Part shown: positions 11,023-44,625 of the stretch, in pieces
Numbering within the stretch: position 1 is the stretch's first letter
Layout of the letters: every line of letters begins with the position of its first letter
DNA from: a virus
Taxonomy: Duplodnaviria; Heunggongvirae; Uroviricota; Caudoviricetes
IMG/VR virus record: IMGVR_UViG_2880361019_000008
Length of the DNA: 55,074 nt
Reading direction: 5' to 3' (one strand)
Notes under the pieces: model-generated
The model's input: the letters and a program-made list of their open reading frames with translations, nothing else
What the model was told of the DNA's origin: nothing
The model's database searches: none
Position numbers and translations under genes: made by a program

Positions 11023-11210
11023 ATTCATTACGATATGGGAATTCCCATATCGGGTAAAAACGGTTTGCGGTAAAGCGAGAGTTAAGTAGAATTGCTGCGG
11101 GTGCTTGAGGCTGTCTGCCTCGGGCATGACACCGTAAGGCAGACAGAGAAAAGCCCCAGTTAACATTACGCGTCCTGCAAGACGCCTAACATTAATCTGA
11201 GGCCAATTTC

Positions 11211-11423
11211 ATGCTAGACACATGTAGGTTAGCCTCTTACGCGCCGAAAGGCAAGGAGAAGCAGGCTATGAAGCAGCAAAAGGCGATGTTAATCGCCCTG
11301 ATCGTCATCTGTATTACCGTCATAGTGACGGCACTGGTAACGAGGAAAGACCTCTGCGAGGTACGAATCCGAACCGGCCAGACGGAGGTCGTTGTCTTCA
11401 CAGCTTACGAACCTGAGGAGTAA
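11211..11423 (+). CDS. mok: Mok-like overlapping reading frame (in-frame N-terminal extension of hok)
   Basis: 70-aa ORF sharing frame and stop with the hok-like gene, as in chromosomal mok/hok loci. Confidence 0.45.
   Translation: MLDTCRLASYAPKGKEKQAMKQQKAMLIALIVICITVIVTALVTRKDLCEVRIRTGQTEVVVFTAYEPEE
11268..11423 (+). CDS. hok: Hok/Gef-family type I toxin
   Basis: 51-aa MKQQKAMLIALIVICITVIVTALVTRKDLCEVRIRTGQTEVVVFTAYEPEE resembles Hok; SD AGGAG 9 nt upstream. Confidence 0.8.
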   Translation: MKQQKAMLIALIVICITVIVTALVTRKDLCEVRIRTGQTEVVVFTAYEPEE

Positions 11424-12933: not shown

Positions 12934-13305
12934 ATGCGTATAGAGTTTGTTTTGCCTTATCCGCCGACGGTGAATACTTACTGGCGACGTCGTGGCAGCA
13001 CATATTTTGTATCAAAAGTCGGTGAGTGTTATCGCCGTGATGTGGCGCTTATTGTTCGCCAGCAGCGGCTGAAATTAAGCCTGTCCGGAAGGCTGGCGAT
13101 AAAAATTATTGCAGAGCCACCGGATAAGCGGCGTCGTGACCTGGACAATATCCTGAAGGCACCACTGGATGCGCTGACGCATGCCGGACTACTCATAGAC
13201 GACGAGCAGTTTGATGAAATCAATATTGTGCGCGGTCAGCTCGTTCCTGGTGGGCGGCTGGGCGTGAAGATTTACGAAATCACAGGTGATAACGATGGCG
13301 CGTGA
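12934..13305 (+). CDS. rusA: Holliday junction resolvase RusA
   Basis: 123-aa ORF with RusA-like motifs (Dx[13 protein letters not shown]). Confidence 0.85.
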
Positions 13306-13681
13306 TATTCAGCAGGTTATGGAACGGTGGGGGGCTTGGGCTGCAAACACTCATGAAGATGTATCCTGGGCGTCGATCGCTGCTGGTTTTAAAGGGTTAA
13401 TTCCGTCGAAAGTGAAATCACGTCCTCAGTGTTCTGATGATGATGCAATGATAATTTGTGGCTGTATGGCCCGGTTAAACAAGAAAAATCAGGATTTGCA
13501 CGATTTGCTGGTGGATTATTACGTATATGGAATGACTTTTATGAGTCTGGCACGGAAACTTGGATGTTCGGATACCTGTGTTGGTAAGCGCCTGCAGAAG
13601 GCGGAAGGGGTTATCGATGGCATGTTGATGATGCTTGATATCCGGCTGGAGATGGACAGATATGTAGAACGAATTATGTAG
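13286..13681 (+). CDS. Late-gene antiterminator Q
   Basis: 131-aa ORF downstream of rusA, followed by promoter-like and terminator elements; alternative start at 13295. Confidence 0.7.
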
Positions 13682-13685
13682 GTGC

Positions 13686-13715
13686 TTGACCATATACATT
13701 GTCCGGGGCTATATT
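13686..13715 (+). promoter_or_regulatory. Candidate late promoter (PR' analogue): TTGACC-N18-TATATT
   Basis: -35 and -10 hexamers immediately after Q stop. Confidence 0.35.
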
Positions 13716-13777
13716 CCTCGCGCGTCAGCAAAATCTGGCGTCGGGATTGGAACCCCGGATATTCAACCGCGACAGAC

Positions 13778-13801
13778 ACACGCCGCGAGCGTGTTTTTTA
13801 T
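13778..13801 (+). terminator. Intrinsic terminator (tR' analogue)
   Basis: Hairpin ACACGC-CGCGA-GCGTGT followed by TTTTTT. Confidence 0.55.
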
Positions 13802-13963
13802 TGTCGTAAGCACACGCACATCTGAATAATGGTGGGGCGTATGGGGGAGCTGAAAGGCTCGCCGGTTGGTTGATCCGGTAGTTCCAACCCTGTACGTCTC
13901 ACCACCCAATGATTGGAACCTGACGGTGGTGATAGTTAAATCCATCAACCAGAGGGCGTTATC

Positions 13964-14524
13964 ATGACGACTCAAGTTTCTGTCGAAACTCTTTCCCCGA
14001 TCACACACAACCAGCTCCCAGTTGTCACTACAGAGTTACTGGCCAAACTATATGGCTGTAGCGTCGAGTGTATTCATAGAAATCACCACCGTAATAAAGA
14101 GCGATTTGCAGAAGGGAAGCACTACATAATTGCGAAAGGCGCAGACCTCCAAAATTTGAAAATCTCTTTAAGGGATTTTCAAACGATCGCCCCAAATGTC
14201 CGAAAGCTCATACTCTGGACAGAACGCGGAGCAGCCCGTCACGCCAAAATGCTCGAAACCGATCAGGCGTGGGAAGTATTCGAAAAACTGGAAGACTGTT
14301 ATTTCAACCAAAAACAACCACCAGCGGCACAAAACACATCTATCGAAAATGATGGATGCGCATTACTGATCCACTTCGATAAACACGGTCAGGTTGAGTT
14401 CACGGAAAAGGTACCCGCCGATGCGATGGTATGCACTCTGGAACGGTTTAAATTTTATCTGGAGCAACACGGGTGGATCGTTGCCCGTAAAGAGCAACTG
14501 GTGGAGCGGTTGATGCGGTTTTAA
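13964..14524 (+). CDS. ORF6N/KilA-N-type DNA-binding protein (antirepressor-like)
   Basis: 186-aa ORF in the late leader; no stronger identification possible. Confidence 0.6.
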   Translation: MTTQVSVETLSPITHNQLPVVTTELLAKLYGCSVECIHRNHHRNKERFAEGKHYIIAKGADLQNLKISLRDFQTIAPNVRKLILWTERGAARHAKMLETDQAWEVFEKLEDCYFNQKQPPAAQNTSIENDGCALLIHFDKHGQVEFTEKVPADAMVCTLERFKFYLEQHGWIVARKEQLVERLMRF

Positions 14525-14624: not shown

Positions 14625-15292
14625 TTATGTGCAGGCCACCCCGGGTGGGTGAAATGTTATTTTCTTCCGTAAGGGCATATCGCCAGGATACAGCGATCAT
14701 TGGTGCATCGGTTTTTGGGCTGCTCCGACTCTGCAGGGCAGCCTTTGTTGTTTTTGATTAAACTCCAGAGTTTTTTATTGAAGGGCGTCACGTTGTAGAT
14801 GGTTATGGGGTACTTTTTATTGTCAAGTATGATGCCGGCGTGAACAGGGGTAAAGGAGCTGTCCGGAGGAAGAAACACATCCGACTGATACCAGATTATT
14901 AACTTTATTTCACACCATATGGCTGAAAATGATATTCCGCTCGATGGCTGTATCACCGTGTCAATCACTATCCAGTTCATGTGTTGTGTCTTTCATTGGA
15001 GGAGGAGCGGAGTGTCAGAAGTATAAGTGGTAATCTGTGATCCATGGCACAGAATGGGCCTTTTTTCTGCGTTGTTTGGCGGTTGTTGAAGGAAAGGGAA
15101 AAGGCATCCAGGAGTAAAATGCTCACTCTGAGGGGCTTACCACAGGAGTTGGTAGCTTGCTGGTGGTTTGTTTGATAACAAAATCTTAAATATTCGCCAG
15201 CTTATTGTTAGCATCCTTAATATTGTGTATTTTCAACAGCGCAGGATGACCCTGTGACGAAGCATTCGTTTGTTCCATCATGAAAGTATTTT

Positions 15293-15357: not shown

Positions 15358-15532
15358 TTGGAGATGAATAACCGTATACTGGATGAACAGTCGACAGATT
15401 TTTTAATAATAAAATCCGAATATACGGTGTCTGCTTATTGTTAGCTGGCTTATATTTTTGTATTTTACTGAACCGCAGGATAAAGCCTGTACCAACGATT
15501 GTATGATGAGTAATTTTAAACCTTGTAATTTA

Positions 15533-15565
15533 CCAGTCAGCATCTGGTGACTGGTTTCTTTTTGG
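15533..15565 (+). terminator. Intrinsic terminator
   Basis: CCAGTCA-N8-TGACTGG hairpin followed by T-rich tract. Confidence 0.6.
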
Positions 15566-15620
15566 GGACTGATTACTCGGTCAGTACGGTCAGTCAGGCA
15601 GAATCCGGACGAATATAAAA

Positions 15621-15699
15621 CCGTCACTAGCTCATCGGGAAAGAGCGAACAACGCCAGAGGTTGTTGTATGGTGCGGGGTTCGAGTCCCCGGTGACGGT
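15621..15699 (+). tRNA. tRNA-like element, probably degenerate (perfect acceptor and T arms, good D arm, irregular anticodon arm; no encoded CCA)
   Basis: 7-bp acceptor stem CCGTCAC/GTGACGG, T arm CGGGG-TTCGAGT-CCCCG, D stem GCTC/GAGC; anticodon region does not fit the canonical 5-bp stem plus 7-nt loop. Confidence 0.4.
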
Positions 15700-15729
15700 C
15701 CGGTTGCAATAATAAATTCATTTCAGACG

Positions 15730-15753
15730 GGCTCGCTACGGCGGGCCTTTTTT
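15730..15753 (+). terminator. Intrinsic terminator just downstream of the tRNA-like element
   Basis: 7-bp stem GGCTCGC/GCGGGCC with TACG tetraloop, then T6. Confidence 0.6.
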
Positions 15754-15961
15754 GTATCCGTGCCAGGCCCGCTGCACATCAACCACAGTGCCTTTTTAAA
15801 ATTGATCGCAGTGTGGCGTTATATGAAATCGAAGAAGTAAAACACGATTCGTGTGAAGCGGAAGATGTGCTGGATGTGGCGGTGGCTATTGCGGAAGCAG
15901 ATGGTGAAATTGAGCCGGAAGAGATCGCCGTTGTTCCGGGCCTTCGTCTGGAGAACCTCCT

Positions 15962-16129
15962 GTGAAGGTAAAACTGCGTCTGGCTGTGGTTGCACTACTG
16001 TTGTTTCTGGTGGTGATGGTGGATTTCACCAGCAGAATCATGTCGGTGCTGGCGGATGGGGTGCTGGTCTGCGGCATTGTGGTATTGCTGTGGCCGGTGA
16101 TAAAAAGAAACAGCCTGCATAATGCTTGA
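15962..16129 (+). CDS. Candidate 55-aa hydrophobic membrane peptide
   Basis: GTG start overlapping the stop of an upstream acidic reading frame (15813..15965); predicted double-TM; SD GGAG about 10 nt upstream. Confidence 0.25.
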   Translation: MKVKLRLAVVALLLFLVVMVDFTSRIMSVLADGVLVCGIVVLLWPVIKRNSLHNA

Positions 16130-16330
16130 TTTTTTTATTTGCTGTTTATTAAAAACACCACTGCATGGTGAATCCCCCTGTGCGGTGGGGCAATCAGCAA
16201 GAAGGAATATGGGGTAACCGCGGATTCAGGTGCTGATACTGAATTCACCGGGAGGCACCCGGCACCATGCTTTGCCACAAAAGTGTTATTTCTGTTTTTC
16301 TCAAACTATCATCGTTATCCCTTTATTTTC

Positions 16331-16443: not shown

Positions 16444-18294
16444 ATGTCGATTAAACATTATGATGTTGTCAGGGCGGCGTCGCCGTCAGACCTTGCGGAA
16501 AAGCTGACACACAAACTGAAAGAGGGCTGGCAGCCATACGGCGGACCGGTTGCCATTACGCCGTACACACTGATGCAGGCGGTGGCTATTGAAGGAGAGC
16601 CACAGGTCGGCCCTTCATCTGAGCCGGATTGGTACTACGTCATCGTACTGGCCGGGCAGTCCAATGCCATGGCTTACGGTGAAGGGCTTCCGCTGCCGGA
16701 TTCATACGATGCTCCGGATCCGTGCATTAAACAGCTGGCGCGCCGCAGTACAGTGACGCCGGGCGGGACTGCCTGCAGATATAACGATATTATTCCGGCC
16801 GACCACTGCCTGCATGATGTGCAGGATATGAGTACGCTGAATCATCCGAAGGCAGACCTGATCAAAGGGCAGTACGGCTGTGTCGGCCAGGGCTTACATA
16901 TTGCCAAAAAACTGCTTCCGTATATCCCGAATAACGCGGGGATCCTGCTGGTACCATGCTGTCGTGGTGGTTCGGCATTCACCCAGGGCGCGGAGGGGAC
17001 ATTCAGCGAGTCCACGGGGGCCAGTCAGGATTCGGCACGCTGGGGGGTGGGCAAGCCGTTATATCAGGATCTGATTTCCCGCACAAAAGCGGCATTGCAG
17101 AAAAATCCCAAAAACGTTCTGCTGGCCGTCTGCTGGATGCAGGGTGAGTTTGACATGAGCGCCGCCACCCACGCACAGCAACCTGCGCTGTTTACAGCCA
17201 TGCTGACACAGTTTCGTGCTGACCTCTCCGTGTTTAACGCGCAGTGCCATGGTGGCAGTGCTGCAGATGTGCCGTGGATTTGTGGTGACACGACGTATTA
17301 CTGGAAAAATACATACGCTACCCAGTACGACACCGTGTACGGCGGGTATAAAAACAGGGAGAGTGAGGGCGTTTATTTTGTGCCCTTCATGACAGACGGT
17401 AACGGCGTCAATACCGCCACTAACGCGCCGGCAGAAGATCCGGATATTCCGGCATCAGGATATTACGGTGCGGCATCGAGAACGAATGGAAACCAGGTAT
17501 CATCAAACCGCCCGACACATTTCAGTTCATGGGCGCGCAGGAGCATTATTCCGGATCGTCTGGCAACCGCTATTCTGAACGCAGCCGGGCGCACCTCCGC
17601 CTTCATCAGTGGTAAGGCACCGGAAATCAAACCCTCGCCCGGCGGCAACACGCCATCGGGTCCGTCTGCAGATACGTCCGTTCGCACAATCTCCCTGCTG
17701 CCGGCAGCCGGAGAGGCTGCTGCGCAGGGCTGGAGCATTAAGGATGGCGGAATTCAGTTGTCAGATGGTGTATTTAAGATCACCAAGCAGAGCAATAAAA
17801 CCTGGTCCCTGACGTATCCGGTGGATGACGCAATTACCCTGCTGACACAGGGCGGCAGACTGACCTGTAAGTTCCGCCTGTCAGGCGCACTGACCAACAA
17901 TCAGTTCGGGCTGGGGATTTATCTGTATACGGATGCTCCCGTTCCTGATGGTGTGGCGATGACGGGTACCGGTAATCCGTTCCTGATGTCGTACTTCACT
18001 CAGACCACTGACGGCAGAGTGAATCTGATGCATCACAGGAAAGCCGGAAACACGAAGCTGGGGGAGTTCGGCGATTACGGTAACGACTGGCAGACGCTGG
18101 AGCTGGTGTTCACCGCCGGCAGTGCCACGGTTACTCCGAAACTGAATGGAGTGGCTGGCCCGGCATTCCAGGTTATAAAAGACAGTCTGACACTGGGACT
18201 GAATGCGCTGACGCTGACGGATGTTACAAAAAATGCAGCGTATGGCGTTGAGATAGAAAGTCTGATGCTGGAGATAAATGCACCGGCAGCATAA
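16444..18294 (+). CDS. nanS-p: Prophage sialate O-acetylesterase NanS-p (N-terminal DUF1737-like region plus SGNH/SASA esterase domain)
   Basis: 616-aa ORF; GQSNA esterase motif; sits between late leader and lysis genes. Confidence 0.85.
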   Translation: MSIKHYDVVRAASPSDLAEKLTHKLKEGWQPYGGPVAITPYTLMQAVAIEGEPQVGPSSEPDWYYVIVLAGQSNAMAYGEGLPLPDSYDAPDPCIKQLARRSTVTPGGTACRYNDIIPADHCLHDVQDMSTLNHPKADLIKGQYGCVGQGLHIAKKLLPYIPNNAGILLVPCCRGGSAFTQGAEGTFSESTGASQDSARWGVGKPLYQDLISRTKAALQKNPKNVLLAVCWMQGEFDMSAATHAQQPALFTAMLTQFRADLSVFNAQCHGGSAADVPWICGDTTYYWKNTYATQYDTVYGGYKNRESEGVYFVPFMTDGNGVNTATNAPAEDPDIPASGYYGAASRTNGNQVSSNRPTHFSSWARRSIIPDRLATAILNAAGRTSAFISGKAPEIKPSPGGNTPSGPSADTSVRTISLLPAAGEAAAQGWSIKDGGIQLSDGVFKITKQSNKTWSLTYPVDDAITLLTQGGRLTCKFRLSGALTNNQFGLGIYLYTDAPVPDGVAMTGTGNPFLMSYFTQTTDGRVNLMHHRKAGNTKLGEFGDYGNDWQTLELVFTAGSATVTPKLNGVAGPAFQVIKDSLTLGLNALTLTDVTKNAAYGVEIESLMLEINAPAA

Positions 18295-18297
18295 TAA

Positions 18298-18590
18298 AAA
18301 AAGCCAGCGACTGATCTGAAAAAGAAGACGCTGGCTAAAAGGCCTTATATGTTTGTAGAGACTTATTTTTCACAGACAGCAATGATGCCTGTCAATATAT
18401 TATCAATATGCGGATTGTTTCAGTTACAGATGCCTTATTAAGGAAAAAAACAGCCAGCACTGACTTTCGGTGGAGAGGTGCTGGCTCAAAAGGATAGATG
18501 TACTTCACATGTTGCTTCTATATGGCAGTACATTTTCTGACAGACAGTGACGGATGTTGTCAAGATATTGTGTCATTTATAACCTGAATC
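18298..18590. repeat. Two imperfect direct copies of a roughly 140-bp element, each starting with an A-run and a stem-loop (18303-18335; 18453-18485)
   Basis: Stems GCCAGCG/CGCTGGC and GCCAGCAC/GTGCTGGC with compensatory differences; both followed by AAAAGG and GACAGACAG-containing tracts. Confidence 0.4.
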
Positions 18591-39860: not shown

Positions 39861-40716
39861 ATGCCAACAGTTCCAATTTCTATGAGAAAACTTAAAGAAA
39901 TTCTTAGGCTTAAATACGGTGTTGGACTCAGCCATCGACAAATTGGTCGTAGTCTTGCAATCTCCCCTTCCGTTGTATCCAGATATGCTAATCGGGCGGC
40001 TCAACTTGGCATAAAGCAGTGGCCCTTACCTACAGGATGGGATGATACAAAACTAAAACATGCGTTCCTTCAGACCCAGGTTAAGATGAAGAAGCACTCT
40101 CTGCCTGACTGGGCTACAGTACACCGGGAACTGCGTAATAAATGCGTGACGCTGCAGCTACTCTGGGAAGAATACTGTGAGCGTAATCCAGGCGGTTTTT
40201 ACAGCTATAACCATTACTGCCGGATGTACCGTGAATGGCTCAAAACCACTTCACCATCAATGCGTCAGGTACATAAAGCTGGCGAAAAACTTTTCGTTGA
40301 TTACTGTGGACCTACCGTTGGCGTTACCGACCCTGAGACCGGAGAAATAAGAACTGCTCAGGTCATCGTAGCTGTTCTCGGGGCATCAAGTTACACATGG
40401 GCAGAGGCCACCTGGTCTCAGCAGCTTGAAGACTGGGTGATGAGTCATGTTCGCTGCTTCCAGTGGTTGGGTGGCGTTCCTGAACTTGTTGTTCCGGACA
40501 ATCTGAAAAGCGCCACATCCAGGGCATGTAAGTATGATCCTGACGTTAACCCTACCTACCAGCAGATGCTTGAGCATTATAATGTCGCAGTTTTGCCTGC
40601 GCGGCCACGTAAACCGAAAGATAAAGCCAAAGCTGAAGTTGGCGTTCAGGTTGTTGAACGCTGGATCATGGCCCGAATCAGGCATGAGATCTTCTACAGC
40701 CTTGCATCGCTTAATC
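39861..40716 (+). pseudogene. istA: IS21-family transposase IstA, N-terminal fragment (interrupted by IS66-family element)
   Basis: 302-aa ORF with HTH and integrase-core motifs; reading frame continues at 43171. Confidence 0.8.
40709..40716. repeat. Target-site duplication GCTTAATC (left copy) of the IS66-family insertion
   Basis: Identical 8-mer at 43171-43178 flanking GTAAGCG...CGCTTAC ends. Confidence 0.7.
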
Positions 40717-40797
40717 GTAAGCGTCGTCTCAGCACCGTCTGGCAGATCCTGAAATTCCTGAGAGAATAGTGGACACCAAATATGGTGGACGCTATCC

Positions 40798-41202
40798 ATG
40801 AAATCATTAACCGCAGTGCGTAAAAAAAGCCCTAATTATCCCGTTGAGTTCAAAATCAAAATGGTTGAACTCTCGCATCGACCAGAGATCTCCGTAGCGC
40901 AACTCGCTCGTGAGCATGGGATCAACGATAATTTGCTGTTCAAGTGGCGCCAGTACTGGCGCGAAGGAAAACTACGTCCTCCTTCAACAACAGAAAACAA
41001 CGTGCCTGAGCTGCTCCCGATAACACTTGATGCCGAAGATGTTGTCCCTACAACCTCCCCCCGGTCACAACCTGTAGCTGCTGCGACACCTGAATCACTC
41101 AATATCAGCTGTGAAGTGACGTTCCGGCACGGATCACTCCGTCTGAATGGTGCCATCAGCGAAAATATCCTGAACCTGCTGATACGGGAGCTCAAACGTT
41201 GA
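40798..41202 (+). CDS. IS66-family accessory protein (orf1/TnpA)
   Basis: 134-aa ORF, first of three IS66 ORFs. Confidence 0.85.
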   Translation: MKSLTAVRKKSPNYPVEFKIKMVELSHRPEISVAQLAREHGINDNLLFKWRQYWREGKLRPPSTTENNVPELLPITLDAEDVVPTTSPRSQPVAAATPESLNISCEVTFRHGSLRLNGAISENILNLLIRELKR

Positions 41203-41546
41203 TCCCATTACCATCAGGGACAAAGATCTGGCTGGTCGCTGGCATCACCGATATGAGAAACGGCTTCAACGGCCTGGCGGCAAAGGTGCAGACGACGCTG
41301 AAAGACGATCCGATGTCAGGTCACGTTTTTATCTTCCGTGGGCGTAATGGCAGTCAGGTAAAGCTCCTCTGGTCTACCGGCGATGGACTGTGTCTGCTGA
41401 CCAAACGGCTGGAGCGCGGCCGCTTCGCCTGGCCGTCAGCCCGGGATGGCAAAGTGTTCCTCACACCGGCACAGCTGGCGATGCTGCTGGAAGGTATCGA
41501 CTGGCGGCAGCCTAAAAGACTGCTTACGTCCCTGACTATGTTGTAA
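41199..41546 (+). CDS. IS66-family accessory protein (orf2/TnpB)
   Basis: 115-aa ORF overlapping orf1 stop. Confidence 0.85.
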   Translation: MIPLPSGTKIWLVAGITDMRNGFNGLAAKVQTTLKDDPMSGHVFIFRGRNGSQVKLLWSTGDGLCLLTKRLERGRFAWPSARDGKVFLTPAQLAMLLEGIDWRQPKRLLTSLTML

Positions 41547-41594
41547 GCCTCTTTATCCTGGTCGACGCTGAATGAGCCTGGTAATATACCCGGT

Positions 41595-43133
41595 ATGAGC
41601 AGCTCACTTCCTGACGATATCAATGCACTGAAACGTCTCCTTGCCGAACAGGAGGCGCTGAACCGTGCCCTGCAGGAAAAGCTGAACGAGCGTGAACGCG
41701 AAATAGACCATCTGCAGGCACAGCTGGATAAGCTGCGCCGGATGAACTTCGGCAGCCGCTCGGAAAAAGTCTCCCGTCGTATCGCACAGATGGAAGCTGA
41801 CCTGAAGGCACTTCAGAAAGAAAGTGATACCCTTACCGGTCGGGTTGACGACCCGGCCGTGCAGCGCCCGCTGCGTCAAACCCGCACCCGCAAACCGTTC
41901 CCCGAATCACTCCCCCGCGATGAAAAACGGCTGCTGCCGGCAGCGTCATGCTGCCCGGAATGTGGAGGCTCGCTGAGCTATCTGGGTGAGGATGCCGCCG
42001 AACAGCTGGAGCTGATGCGCAGCGCCTTCCGGGTTATCCGGACTGTACGTGAAAAGCATGCCTGTACTCAGTGCGATGCCATCGTGCAGGCCCCCGCGCC
42101 TTCACGGCCCATCGAGCGGGGTATCGCAGGACCGGGGCTGCTGGCCCGCGTGCTGATCTCAAAGTATGCAGAGCACACCCCGCTGTACCGCCAGTCTGAA
42201 ATGTACGGCCGCCAGGGCGTGGAGCTGAGTCGTTCACTGCTGTCGGGCTGGGTGGATGCATGCTGCCGGCTACTGTCACCGCTGGAAGAAGCGCTTCAGG
42301 ACTATGTGCTGACTGACGGTAAGCTCCATGCTGATGACACGCCTGTCCCGGTGCTGTTGCCAGGCAATAAGAAAACGAAGACCGGGCGGTTATGGACCTA
42401 CGTTCGTGACGACCGTAACGCCGGGTCAACGCTGGCGCCGGCGGTGTGGTTCGCTTACAGCCCGGACAGAAAAGGCATCCATCCGCAGACCCATCTTGCG
42501 GGGTTCAGTGGTGTACTGCAGGCGGATGCATACGCCGGGTTCAACGAGCTGTACCGGGATGGCCGGATAACGGAAGCCGCCTGTTGGGCTCACGCCCGCC
42601 GTAAAATCCACGATGTGCACGTTCGCACCCCGTCAGCCCTGACGGAGGAAGCGCTGAAACGGATCGGCGAACTGTACGCCATCGAGGCAGAGATAAGGGG
42701 AATGACGGCGGAGCAGCGCCTTGCCGAACGTCAGTTGAAAACGAAACCGCTGCTGAAATCCCTGGAAAGCTGGCTGCGTGAAAAGATGAAAACCCTGTCG
42801 CGACACTCAGAACTGGCGAAAGCGTTCGCATACGCCCTGAACCAGTGGCCGGCGCTGACGTACTATGCAGATGATGGCTGGGCTGAGGCGGACAATAACA
42901 TCGCTGAAAATGCGTTGCGGATGGTCAGTCTGGGCCGCAAAAACTACCTGTTCTTCGGTTCGGATCATGGAGGAGAGCGGGGAGCGCTGCTGTACAGCCT
43001 GATCGGGACGTGCAAACTGAACGGAGTGGAGCCAGAAAGCTACCTCCGCTATGTCCTTGACGTCATAGCCGACTGGCCGATAAACCGGGTCGGCGAACTG
43101 CTCCCCTGGCGCGTAGCACTGCCGACTGAATAA
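41595..43133 (+). CDS. IS66-family transposase (orf3)
   Basis: 512-aa ORF with N-terminal coiled coil and zinc-ribbon CPECGG. Confidence 0.9.
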
Positions 43134-43170
43134 CACATCCCCGTCAATACGGTTCTTGCTGCACGCTTAC

Positions 43171-43864
43171 GCTTAATCAGCGCATTCGGGAGTTGCTGGA
43201 AAGACTGAATAACAAAATAATGCAGAAGTTGGGTTATTCACGTGCAGAACTCTTCATCCAGCTTGATAAACCCGCACTGAAGCCTCTTCCTGAAGCCAGT
43301 TACAGTTACACCCTGGTGAAGAAAGTCAGAGTTCATGCCGATTACCACGTGGAAATCGACAAACATTACTACTCGGTTCCATGTTCGCTGTTAGGCCAGC
43401 AACTGGAAGCATGGATCTCCGGAGAACTGGTAAGACTCTTCAATCAGGGGCAGGAGGTTGCTGTGCACCCGCGCAAGCGTACTTATGGCTACAGTACCCG
43501 CAACGAGCACATGCCTGAAGCTCATCGACAGCATGCCACCTGGACGCCAGAGCGTCTTCTGGAATGGGCGGGGCACATAGGCAGTGAAACTCATAGTTAT
43601 GTGCTTCATATACTGAACTCTCGTCCACATCCGGAACAAAGCTATCGCTTCTGCCTTGGACTCCTGAACCTTCATAAAAAATACAGTAAAGCCAGACTTA
43701 ATGCAGCATGTGCAAGAGCTCTGAAAACAAAGGTATGGCGTCTGTCAGGTATTAAATCGATCCTGGAAAAAGGTCTGGATAAACAACCTGTTCAGGATCC
43801 AAAACCAGATCTGTTATCCACGATGGAACACGAAAACGTACGCGGCAGTGAGTATTACCACTGA
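43171..43864 (+). pseudogene. istA: IS21-family transposase IstA, C-terminal fragment
   Basis: Frame continuous with N-fragment once the IS66 element and one duplication copy are removed. Confidence 0.75.
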
Positions 43865-43875
43865 TACGGGATCCA

Positions 43876-44625
43876 ATGATGAATCATCTTTACGAACAAC
43901 TGACCGCACTTAAACTCACCGGCTTCCGTGATGCGCTTAAAAAGCAACTTGCTCAGCCGGGCACATACCAGGAGCTGGGCTTCGAAGAACGCCTGTCATT
44001 ACTGACAGCAGAAGAACTAACCTGCCGTGAAAACAGGAAGGCAGAGCGTCTGATCAAACATGCACGGTTCAGACTTAATGCTGAGTTATCAAAGCTGGAT
44101 TATCGTAACAATAGAGGGCTGGACAGGGCCCTCATCCGTTCACTCAGTCAGGGAAACTGGTTAACCCTGAAACAAAATATTTTACTGACCGGGGCCACCG
44201 GCAGCGGTAAAACGTTCCTGGCATGTGCACTTGGTCATAATGCCTGCCGACAGGGATACAAGGTCTACTATTATCGCCTTAAAGCGCTGATGGAACAGTG
44301 CTATCAGGGGCATGCTGATGGAAGATACAGCAAACTTTTGACCAGGCTGAATAATAGCGATCTGCTGCTTCTGGATGACTGGGGGCTGGAACCTCTCTCA
44401 TCAGAACAGCGTAGCGACCTGCTGGAAATAGTGGATCTGATGTACCAACGAGGCTCAATCATCGTAGTGAGCCAGTTGCCGGTGGAAAACTGGTACAAAA
44501 TGATCGGAGACTCCACACATGCGGATGCCATCCTAGATCGACTGGTTCATGGCAGTATCAAGATCGAACTTAAAGGAGAATCAATGCGGAAAATACAATC
44601 TCCGTTGACCGAAGGAGATCAGTGA
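43876..44625 (+). CDS. istB: IS21-family ATP-binding helper protein IstB
   Basis: 249-aa ORF with Walker A GATGSGKT and Walker B LLLLDDWG. Confidence 0.9.
   Translation: MMNHLYEQLTALKLTGFRDALKKQLAQPGTYQELGFEERLSLLTAEELTCRENRKAERLIKHARFRLNAELSKLDYRNNRGLDRALIRSLSQGNWLTLKQNILLTGATGSGKTFLACALGHNACRQGYKVYYYRLKALMEQCYQGHADGRYSKLLTRLNNSDLLLLDDWGLEPLSSEQRSDLLEIVDLMYQRGSIIVVSQLPVENWYKMIGDSTHADAILDRLVHGSIKIELKGESMRKIQSPLTEGDQ

Follow-up and report, generated by a model that had tools for sequence, protein, structure and literature searches.

The closest described relatives of the element reported here are the tRNA genes of Stx phages. In phage 933W, argN is located after Q within the ileZ-argN-argO operon, behind the annotated promoter pT, and encodes a tRNA with a 5-bp anticodon stem, a CUUCGAA loop that includes U33, a 5-nt variable loop, and an encoded CCA end. 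[quoted passage not shown]

The window, by which we mean the whole 55,074-nt stretch of DNA analysed, is a lambdoid prophage. Upstream of the element, it carries RusA, Q (13286-13681), isrK/C4-like RNAs and an ORF6N gene, in this order, and downstream of it DUF3927, STnc100, a nanS-p-type esterase (16444-18294) and the lysis genes, with 95-96% identity to Stx1a phages from about position 16450 onward. A search of 5,426 complete E. coli genomes gave no close match to the 501 nt around the element, and 13 loci of NCBI and Logan assemblies carry them with 100% identity, one of these loci being CP034212.1, listed as Escherichia albertii 2010C-3449 in a published table (PMC10673567). The window-type element is rare, known from this Escherichia albertii prophage module and one viral contig. 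The features around it are the following:

15403-15531, plus strand: conserved non-coding sequence leading up to the upstream terminator; its colinear counterpart in 933W lies between the two terminators that follow pR'
15532-15565, plus strand: upstream intrinsic-terminator-like hairpin (15532-15555) and T run, homologous to the terminator that 933W has "upstream of the tRNA genes"
15566-15620, plus strand: poorly conserved 55-nt leader, in the place of about 240 nt in 933W (pT, ileZ and the ileZ-argN spacer)
15621-15699, plus strand: tRNA-derived element, assigned to the argN family from its sequence, ARAGORN, the cloverleaf fold, a family covariance model and alignments
15700-15702, plus strand: CCG where all other family members encode CCA, from the sequence and the family alignment
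15729-15757, plus strand: downstream intrinsic-terminator-like hairpin (15729-15748) and T run, homologous to the 933W terminator that separates the tRNA operon from stx

Other features of the prophage were recorded along the way. Directly after Q (13686-14524) are a promoter-like site and an isrK match (13722-13799, 75.6 bits), with c4-a1b1 and C4 antisense RNA matches at 13709-13909 and the ORF6N-domain gene at 13964-14524, a set that resembles the Gifsy-1 IsrK/anti-Q module, here in an Escherichia albertii-type prophage. A 107-aa ORF on the minus strand (14657-14980) is assigned to Pfam PF11183 (PmrD) in the precomputed gene tables of identical loci, and the same protein gave no hmmscan match at E ≤ 0.001; a PmrD-like gene would be unusual on a prophage. 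The STnc100 match (16137-16303, 98.5 bits) lies just upstream of the esterase gene. STnc100 is akin to the PasD sRNAs, with PasA located across the esterase from it (bioRxiv 10.64898/2026.05.13.724894), and the stretch from the esterase gene to the holin gene, at about 18300-18550, may hold a PasA-like sRNA. In addition, a sok antitoxin RNA match (117.5 bits) adjoins a hok-type ORF (11099-11423), and a DicF RNA match was found on the minus strand (4534-4585, 73.4 bits). Finally, the tail-fibre region is interrupted at 39861-44625 by transposase genes (rve-type, IS66 family, Mu-transposase C-terminal domain and IstB/IS21), so the prophage may be defective; beyond them lie an NleL/SopA-like effector (48183-50531) and then a DUF4765 protein (51124-54525).

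Analysis of the element revealed an acceptor stem in which CCGTCAC (15621-15627) pairs perfectly with GTGACGG (15692-15698) over 7/7 positions, with U8 and A9 directly 3' of its first strand. The D arm (15630-15646) pairs GCTC (15630-15633) with GAGC (15643-15646) around a 9-nt loop, ATCGGGAAA, with GG inside, and G26 (15647) separates it from an anticodon stem of 6 bp, formed by AACAAC (15648-15653) and GTTGTT (15661-15666), which could also be counted as 5 bp plus an extra nucleotide after G26. The anticodon loop, GCCAGAG (15654-15660), is 7 nt long and centred on CAG, with C33, A37 and not a single U. It is followed by an unpaired variable region of 8-9 nt (GTATGGTG, 15667-15674), by a T arm (15675-15691) made of CGGGG (15675-15679), the loop TTCGAGT and CCCCG (15687-15691), and by a T (U73) as discriminator at 15699. 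The tertiary nucleotides U8, A14, G18 G19, G53-C61, T54 Psi55 C56 and A58 are all present, and the cloverleaf is the minimum-energy fold of the element both alone and in a 150-nt context.

The original prediction, made from the letters alone, had described this architecture well: the perfect acceptor (7 bp), D (4 bp, GG loop) and T arms, the CAG-centred loop with C33, the missing CCA, and the terminators about 55 nt upstream and 30 nt downstream were all found where it had placed them. It was also right in taking the anticodon region to be too long, but the excess is of 5 nt and not of 3, as the D stem and the T stem are separated by 28 nt in the element vs. 23 nt in canonical family members; these 5 nt correspond to one added base pair in the anticodon stem and 3 nt in the variable region. 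Compared with a canonical tRNA, the element shows the expected cloverleaf, with a 7-bp acceptor stem, a D stem within 3-4 bp and a 5-bp T stem. In contrast, its anticodon arm is longer than the canonical one (5-bp stem, 7-nt loop) and lacks U33, although position 37 is the expected purine (A37), and its variable region is neither of class I size (4-5 nt) nor a class II stem-loop (at least 10 nt). In the context fold, CCGGA in the leader (15605-15609) can also pair with UCCGG (15699-15703), the stretch that replaces UCCA, lengthening the acceptor helix; the E. coli copies described below have UGGA and UCCA at another offset, and the extension may be due to chance.

Annotation tools gave conflicting calls. 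ARAGORN called a tRNA-Leu(CAG) at 15621-15701, its sole tRNA in the 55 kb, and the Rfam tRNA model (RF00005) listed the element neither at the gathering threshold (29 bits) nor at E ≤ 10. At these two settings, Rfam returned over the element only chance-level matches, to the mascRNA T arm (17 bits), pRNA, rsmX and terminator look-alikes. Thus, the generic covariance model gave no match, an outcome that the original prediction had counted against itself, whereas a covariance model specific for the body of the family scored the element at 85.7 bits (E about 2e-22), compared with 22-48 bits for unrelated array tRNAs. By this family model, the element is a single copy, and no extra or decayed family copies were detected in the window at E ≤ 10, with the decayed slot-2 copy of contig L001 scoring 94 bits as a control. 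The family-specific evidence outweighs the missing match to Rfam's generic model, and the family-model score together with clear homologs elsewhere rules out a chance match.

Alignment with known phage tRNA genes paired the element with argN of phage 933W (59/82 identical), in good agreement with the proposal in the original prediction that it might be a decayed copy of an Stx-phage tRNA gene. About 160 nt upstream of it, including the terminator, are colinear with 933W (98/162 identical; upstream terminator at 1430-1458 of the 933W sequence), and the downstream terminator aligns with the 933W terminator "upstream of the stx genes" (1886-1909; 36/46 identical), so that both flanking terminators are homologous. 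The element shares with 933W argN the C1-G72 acceptor pair, the D arm, the GGTTCGAGTCC T arm, U73, the site after Q and both terminators. In contrast, the features of 933W argN described above, from the 5-bp anticodon stem to the encoded CCA, are missing from the window copy, and so are pT, ileZ and argO, leaving the argN-like gene as the only one of the operon, downstream of Q, between the tRNA-operon terminators and before the stx/esterase position. These alignments indicate that the element is a homolog of argN from the ileZ-argN-argO operon and that the locus is a reduced Stx-phage tRNA operon. A working Arg loop in this family would have C35 and a working Lys loop UUU, with CCA encoded at the end of the gene; the element has A35 and CCG, which makes it a derived and probably non-decoding member of the argN family. 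Degradation is limited to the anticodon arm, the CCA end and the surrounding operon, whereas the acceptor, D and T arms are intact and exceed the flanks in conservation, which leaves room for a role as a non-decoding tRNA-like RNA.

We compared the element with relatives recovered by pattern scans and BLAST; most of them were retrieved by a T-arm/acceptor pattern, which inflates the apparent conservation of the T arm and acceptor. Window-type sequences were sought in species-representative genomes (two exact-pattern scans), in metagenomes (one scan) and in viral contigs (six pattern scans), one search pattern being too loose and returning mostly chance matches; all that turned up was contig L175 (IMGVR_UViG_2684622582_000006), an E. 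coli stand-alone type, and clones of the window module. In arrays, the gene of this family is always in the second slot, right after an ileZ-like Met-CAU tRNA. Across phages, at least 10 different anticodon loops are found on one body, the forms recorded including:

Arg-UCG (argN type), loop CUUCGAA: arrays, second slot
Arg-UCU, loop CUUCUAA: arrays, second slot
Canonical Lys-UUU, loop CUUUUAU: arrays, second slot (L007)
8-nt loop form, CUUUUUAU: second slot of L092 (3553-3630, minus strand)
Lys-like with C33, loop CCUUUAA: very common in arrays, labelled tRNA-Lys in some records and blank in others
Long form, E. coli stand-alone, loop ACGUAUU (variants ACAUAUU and GCGUAUU): 16 of 5,426 complete E. 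coli genomes, never annotated
Long form, in-array, loop ACCAGAU: only L175
Long form, window type, loop GCCAGAG: the clonal module of the window
Long form, damaged, 11-nt loop: L340 (3033-3113)
Anticodon arm deleted, no loop: L368 and L099

The slot-2 tRNA-Lys and tRNA-Arg genes (PPompW, PhiR47_1 and many IMG/VR contigs) share the body of the element, with about 80% identity and the same family by covariance model. Unlike the element, the slot-2 genes of E. coli arrays are 76-77 nt long, have neighbours 1-2 nt away, encode CCA, show recognisable Lys or Arg anticodons and pass the Rfam tRNA threshold (40 bits). The common Lys-like form has C33 as the element does and is annotated inconsistently. 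Further relatives are the unannotated 82-nt stand-alone E. coli copies (e.g. ETEC1749, UMNK88) and the 82-nt copy in the L175 array, which share with the element the extra nucleotides, the GTTGTT 3' stem strand, a variable region ending in TGGTG, and identical acceptor and T arms. The element has in common with the E. coli copies the terminator-flanked, stand-alone context, and with L175 the C33-CAG-A37 loop core. However, the E. coli copies differ from it in the loop (ACGUAUU, with U37), in an A10-U25 pair in the D stem and in CCA, and L175 in its position in an array between Met-like and Thr tRNAs, its CCA and a G-U pair in the T stem. Over the element alone, L175 is 92.8% identical to the window, whereas the flanks of the element instead resemble the E. 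coli stand-alone module (about 70%).

Some members of the family deserve separate mention. ARAGORN reads the slot-2 anticodon of L092 as "tttt", and its 8-nt loop has the geometry of a +1 frameshift suppressor, though a slippage mutation may be all there is to it. L340, a third long form, occupies the argN slot of an ileZ-X-argO array and has a GACGAC/GTTGTT stem that includes two G-U pairs, as well as a T-stem mismatch; it shows that the lengthening of the anticodon arm had several origins or was followed by diversification inside arrays. An alternative helix between CGCCA and TGGTG, in the anticodon/variable region, fits the window and L175, but is broken in the E. coli copies and was discarded. 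In E. coli prophages, the stand-alone element is followed by a full TerB/TciA gene; in the window, a 50-aa ORF (15813-15965) matches the C-terminal portion of genes of the TerB/TciA family, with about 86% nucleotide identity, and is apparently what is left of a truncated gene. The common arrays of E. coli prophages are of the type Met(CAU)-Lys(UUU)-like-Thr(UGU)-Gly(UCC) (L003, 2426-2735; L004; L014; and many IMG/VR loci). The Lys-like gene of these arrays has C33 and G39-U40-U41 vs. the reported AriB site U39-C40/A41, and the Thr gene keeps UAAUCA.

The variety of anticodon loops on a single body raises the question of whether the element acts against host defences, as a decoy that occupies a tRNA-targeting nuclease or as a nuclease-resistant variant, in which case the loop would be engaged in an arms race while the body is kept. 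Favouring this, besides the diversity itself, no part changes faster than the loop (identity of 1/7 with the E. coli stand-alone copy, vs. about 69% in the flanks), and related arrays hold Lys(UUU)-like and Thr(UGU) genes, the isotypes of the two prime targets of AriB, E. coli tRNA-Lys(UUU) and tRNA-Thr(UGU) (PMC12409363). However, no nuclease is known for a CAG-type loop on an argN-family body, Pfam and PADLOC scans of the larger ORFs of the prophage revealed no convincing tRNA nuclease or defence gene, and the element lacks its own promoter. In addition, the broken loop variants (3-, 8- and 11-nt loops and the deleted arm) resemble decay more than tuning, and the excess in loop rate, seen in three long-form lineages only, is statistically weak (P of about 0.004 before correcting for about ten segments). 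We therefore regard an anti-defence mimic as improbable.

A related proposal for the long forms as a group (window, L175, E. coli stand-alone and L340) would be that they are non-decoding mimics that bind, or are spared by, tRNA-directed nucleases or other tRNA-binding factors, with the argN slot serving as a conserved chassis and the anticodon arm as a diversification hotspot. This we likewise consider a long shot; if it were true, the long forms would be a class of decoys distinct from the nuclease-resistant phage tRNAs that still decode, and the nucleases would be those of the host or of rival phages.

Is the element able to decode? We infer that it is almost certainly, or at least very probably, non-decoding, given the missing U33, the lengthened arm, a variable region of neither class, U73 and the CCG end. 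Its "anticodon" is not conserved among stand-alone copies, being CAG in the window and GUA or AUA, with U37, in E. coli. With the Rfam tRNA model, array neighbours scored 65-74 bits and the Lys-like form with C33 40 bits, while the element went unlisted; so did the L175 copy, whose array neighbours scored 65-71 bits. As above, the E. coli stand-alone copies are passed over by automatic annotation, since the NCBI pipeline never labels them as tRNA. The E. coli LeuRS requires A73 and does not read the anticodon, so the isotype label given by ARAGORN carries no weight, and, by established identity rules, U73 and a class I body with CAG fit no E. coli synthetase.

A working tRNA that reads CUG, or another codon, despite the odd anticodon arm is accordingly hard to credit. 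It would explain why ARAGORN calls tRNA-Leu(CAG) for both the element and L175, why C33-CAG-A37 is identical in both, with L175 in a tightly spaced array and followed by CCA, and why all four stems of the element are perfect. Nevertheless, it would have to accommodate a loop without any U, the added stem pair, the 8-9-nt variable region, a discriminator and class I body that do not match leucine identity, the missing Rfam tRNA listing, the GUA or AUA with U37 of the E. coli orthologs, and the CCG of the window. Moreover, CUG is the commonest codon of E. coli, so supplementation would be needless.

The pattern of conservation was analysed by comparison with the E. coli stand-alone module. The flanks are identical at 151/215 and 39/59 positions, about 69%, whereas the acceptor, T arm and discriminator are identical at 32/32 positions and the anticodon loop at 1/7. 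At the identity of the flanks (about 0.69), the chance of seeing no change in 32 body positions would be about 7e-6. From one stand-alone type to the other, the D-stem pair G10-C25 is replaced by A10-U25, a compensatory change, and a C-G pair of the anticodon stem by U-G, so that 3/3 stem substitutions keep the pairing; the A10-U25 pair is confined to the stand-alone lineage, and all in-array copies lack it. Pairing in both terminators is also kept by double, compensatory changes. In 26 distinct sequences of the family, no pair of the acceptor stem is broken (100% paired); five pairs vary only to G-U and one alternates between U-A and C-G. Changes on both sides affect four pairs among these 26 sequences, and the covariation score exceeded 500/500 shuffles and every slid control, although related sequences may beat shuffle controls without structure. 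The G-U pairs identify the plus strand as the RNA strand, as they would be A-C mismatches on the other. A protein-coding role for a minus-strand ORF (15403-15627, 74 aa) was rejected: several 1-4-nt indels separate this stretch from the E. coli module, so the frame is apparently not conserved.

These data have to be weighed against neutral decay, in which the element would be a functionless pseudogene. Its body would then be intact because it arose recently, or because functional argN/Lys-type paralogs in other prophages of the same cell repeatedly overwrote it by gene conversion or recombination. Such conversion could in fact mimic purifying selection on the body. The loss of pT, ileZ and argO and the change of CCA into CCG fit decay, and so do the IS66/IS21-type insertions in the tail region of a possibly defective prophage. 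The fact that the element is closest to L175, of another context, while its flanks match a different module, is the pattern expected from recombination. Furthermore, damaged slot-2 copies are frequent (L001 slot 2, L002, L099, L299/L300, L340, L368 and L377), and many appear in a sample anchored on the Q protein, and thus independent of the tRNA sequence, which makes simple pseudogene decay a common fate in the argN family; damage concentrates in the anticodon arm and mostly spares the acceptor/T/D body. Among the E. coli stand-alone copies, the element is just slightly less variable than the flanks (7/79 vs. 63/422 sites), with stem-breaking changes in some copies, so recent constraint is weak there. 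As the window module is invariant (13 loci, 501 nt), the argument for constraint comes from one deep comparison and L175. In contrast, neutral decay does not readily account for 32/32 identical positions in the acceptor and T arm against about 31% divergence in the flanks, for the A10-U25 pair exclusive to the stand-alone lineage, or for the preservation of pairing by all three stem substitutions between stand-alone types, and the window holds no paralog that could donate sequence by conversion. On balance, we give a neutral pseudogene, the most serious of the alternatives, a lower but still substantial probability.

We hold, with moderate confidence, that the element is a remodelled, non-decoding member of the argN ("slot 2") family, transcribed by read-through and processed, whose body has been kept because its fold matters. 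It would be the only surviving gene of a reduced pT-ileZ-argN-argO operon, between Q and the would-be stx position, in which the complete tRNA body was kept (acceptor/T-arm minihelix, D arm, and the elbow nucleotides G18 G19, T54, Psi55 and C56), while the anticodon arm was apparently rebuilt by one added base pair, three added variable-region nucleotides and a C33 loop without U. No sigma-70-like promoter was found on the plus strand between the upstream terminator and the element (15566-15620); TATAAA at 15614-19 was discarded as a promoter, as it directly adjoins the element and the best candidate for a -35 hexamer is spaced from it by only 12 nt. Most likely, the element would be transcribed only when Q-modified polymerase passes the upstream terminators in lytic growth. 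Its tRNA-like fold might then be seen by processing enzymes, with RNase P cleaving at 15620/15621 and 3' trimming, and the body might be retained because it marks, for example, a site of processing or punctuation within the late transcript, and not for translation. That the phage benefits from cleavage at 15620/15621 is conjecture.

If processing takes place, the product that matters might instead be the 3' trailer, with the body as a handle that releases the A/U-rich stretch of about 55 nt and terminator hairpin (15700-15757) as an Hfq-type sRNA. sRNAs from tRNA 3' external spacers do exist, such as 3'ETS-leuZ. Here, the conserved terminator, with its compensatory changes and U tail, would provide the end of such an RNA, and the late regions of prophages of this kind are rich in Hfq-bound sRNAs, with STnc100/PasD 400 nt downstream (bioRxiv 10.64898/2026.05.13.724894). 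However, the single-stranded part is poorly conserved (39/59 overall, with the identity mostly in the hairpin), the same terminator follows argO in 933W as a plain operon terminator, and no Rfam family matched beyond chance terminator matches, so we find a trailer sRNA very improbable. Two further candidates were rejected. An antisense regulator was dismissed because an 8-mer complementary to the loop is absent from the window except opposite the element itself. As for a Pas sRNA, PasA/PasC neighbour TerB and RusA, but the preprint places PasA and PasD/STnc100 at the flanks of the esterase (bioRxiv 10.64898/2026.05.13.724894).

In conclusion, the element is a variant of phage tRNA genes and pseudogenes and not a new kind of system, and no description of the long form, which is rare, was found in the literature or sequence collections searched. 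For annotation, neither the tRNA-Leu(CAG) label of ARAGORN nor the miss of the covariance pipelines fits a derivative of the argN family. For the family, the second gene of the Stx-phage tRNA operon emerges as unusually plastic, with many anticodon arms on one body, and with decoding features often lost while the parts recognised by RNase P and the CCA-adding enzyme stay. If the retained body does reflect a non-decoding role, as a processing point or a decoy, which is a minority possibility, this element would be an accessible model of how phage tRNAs are repurposed.
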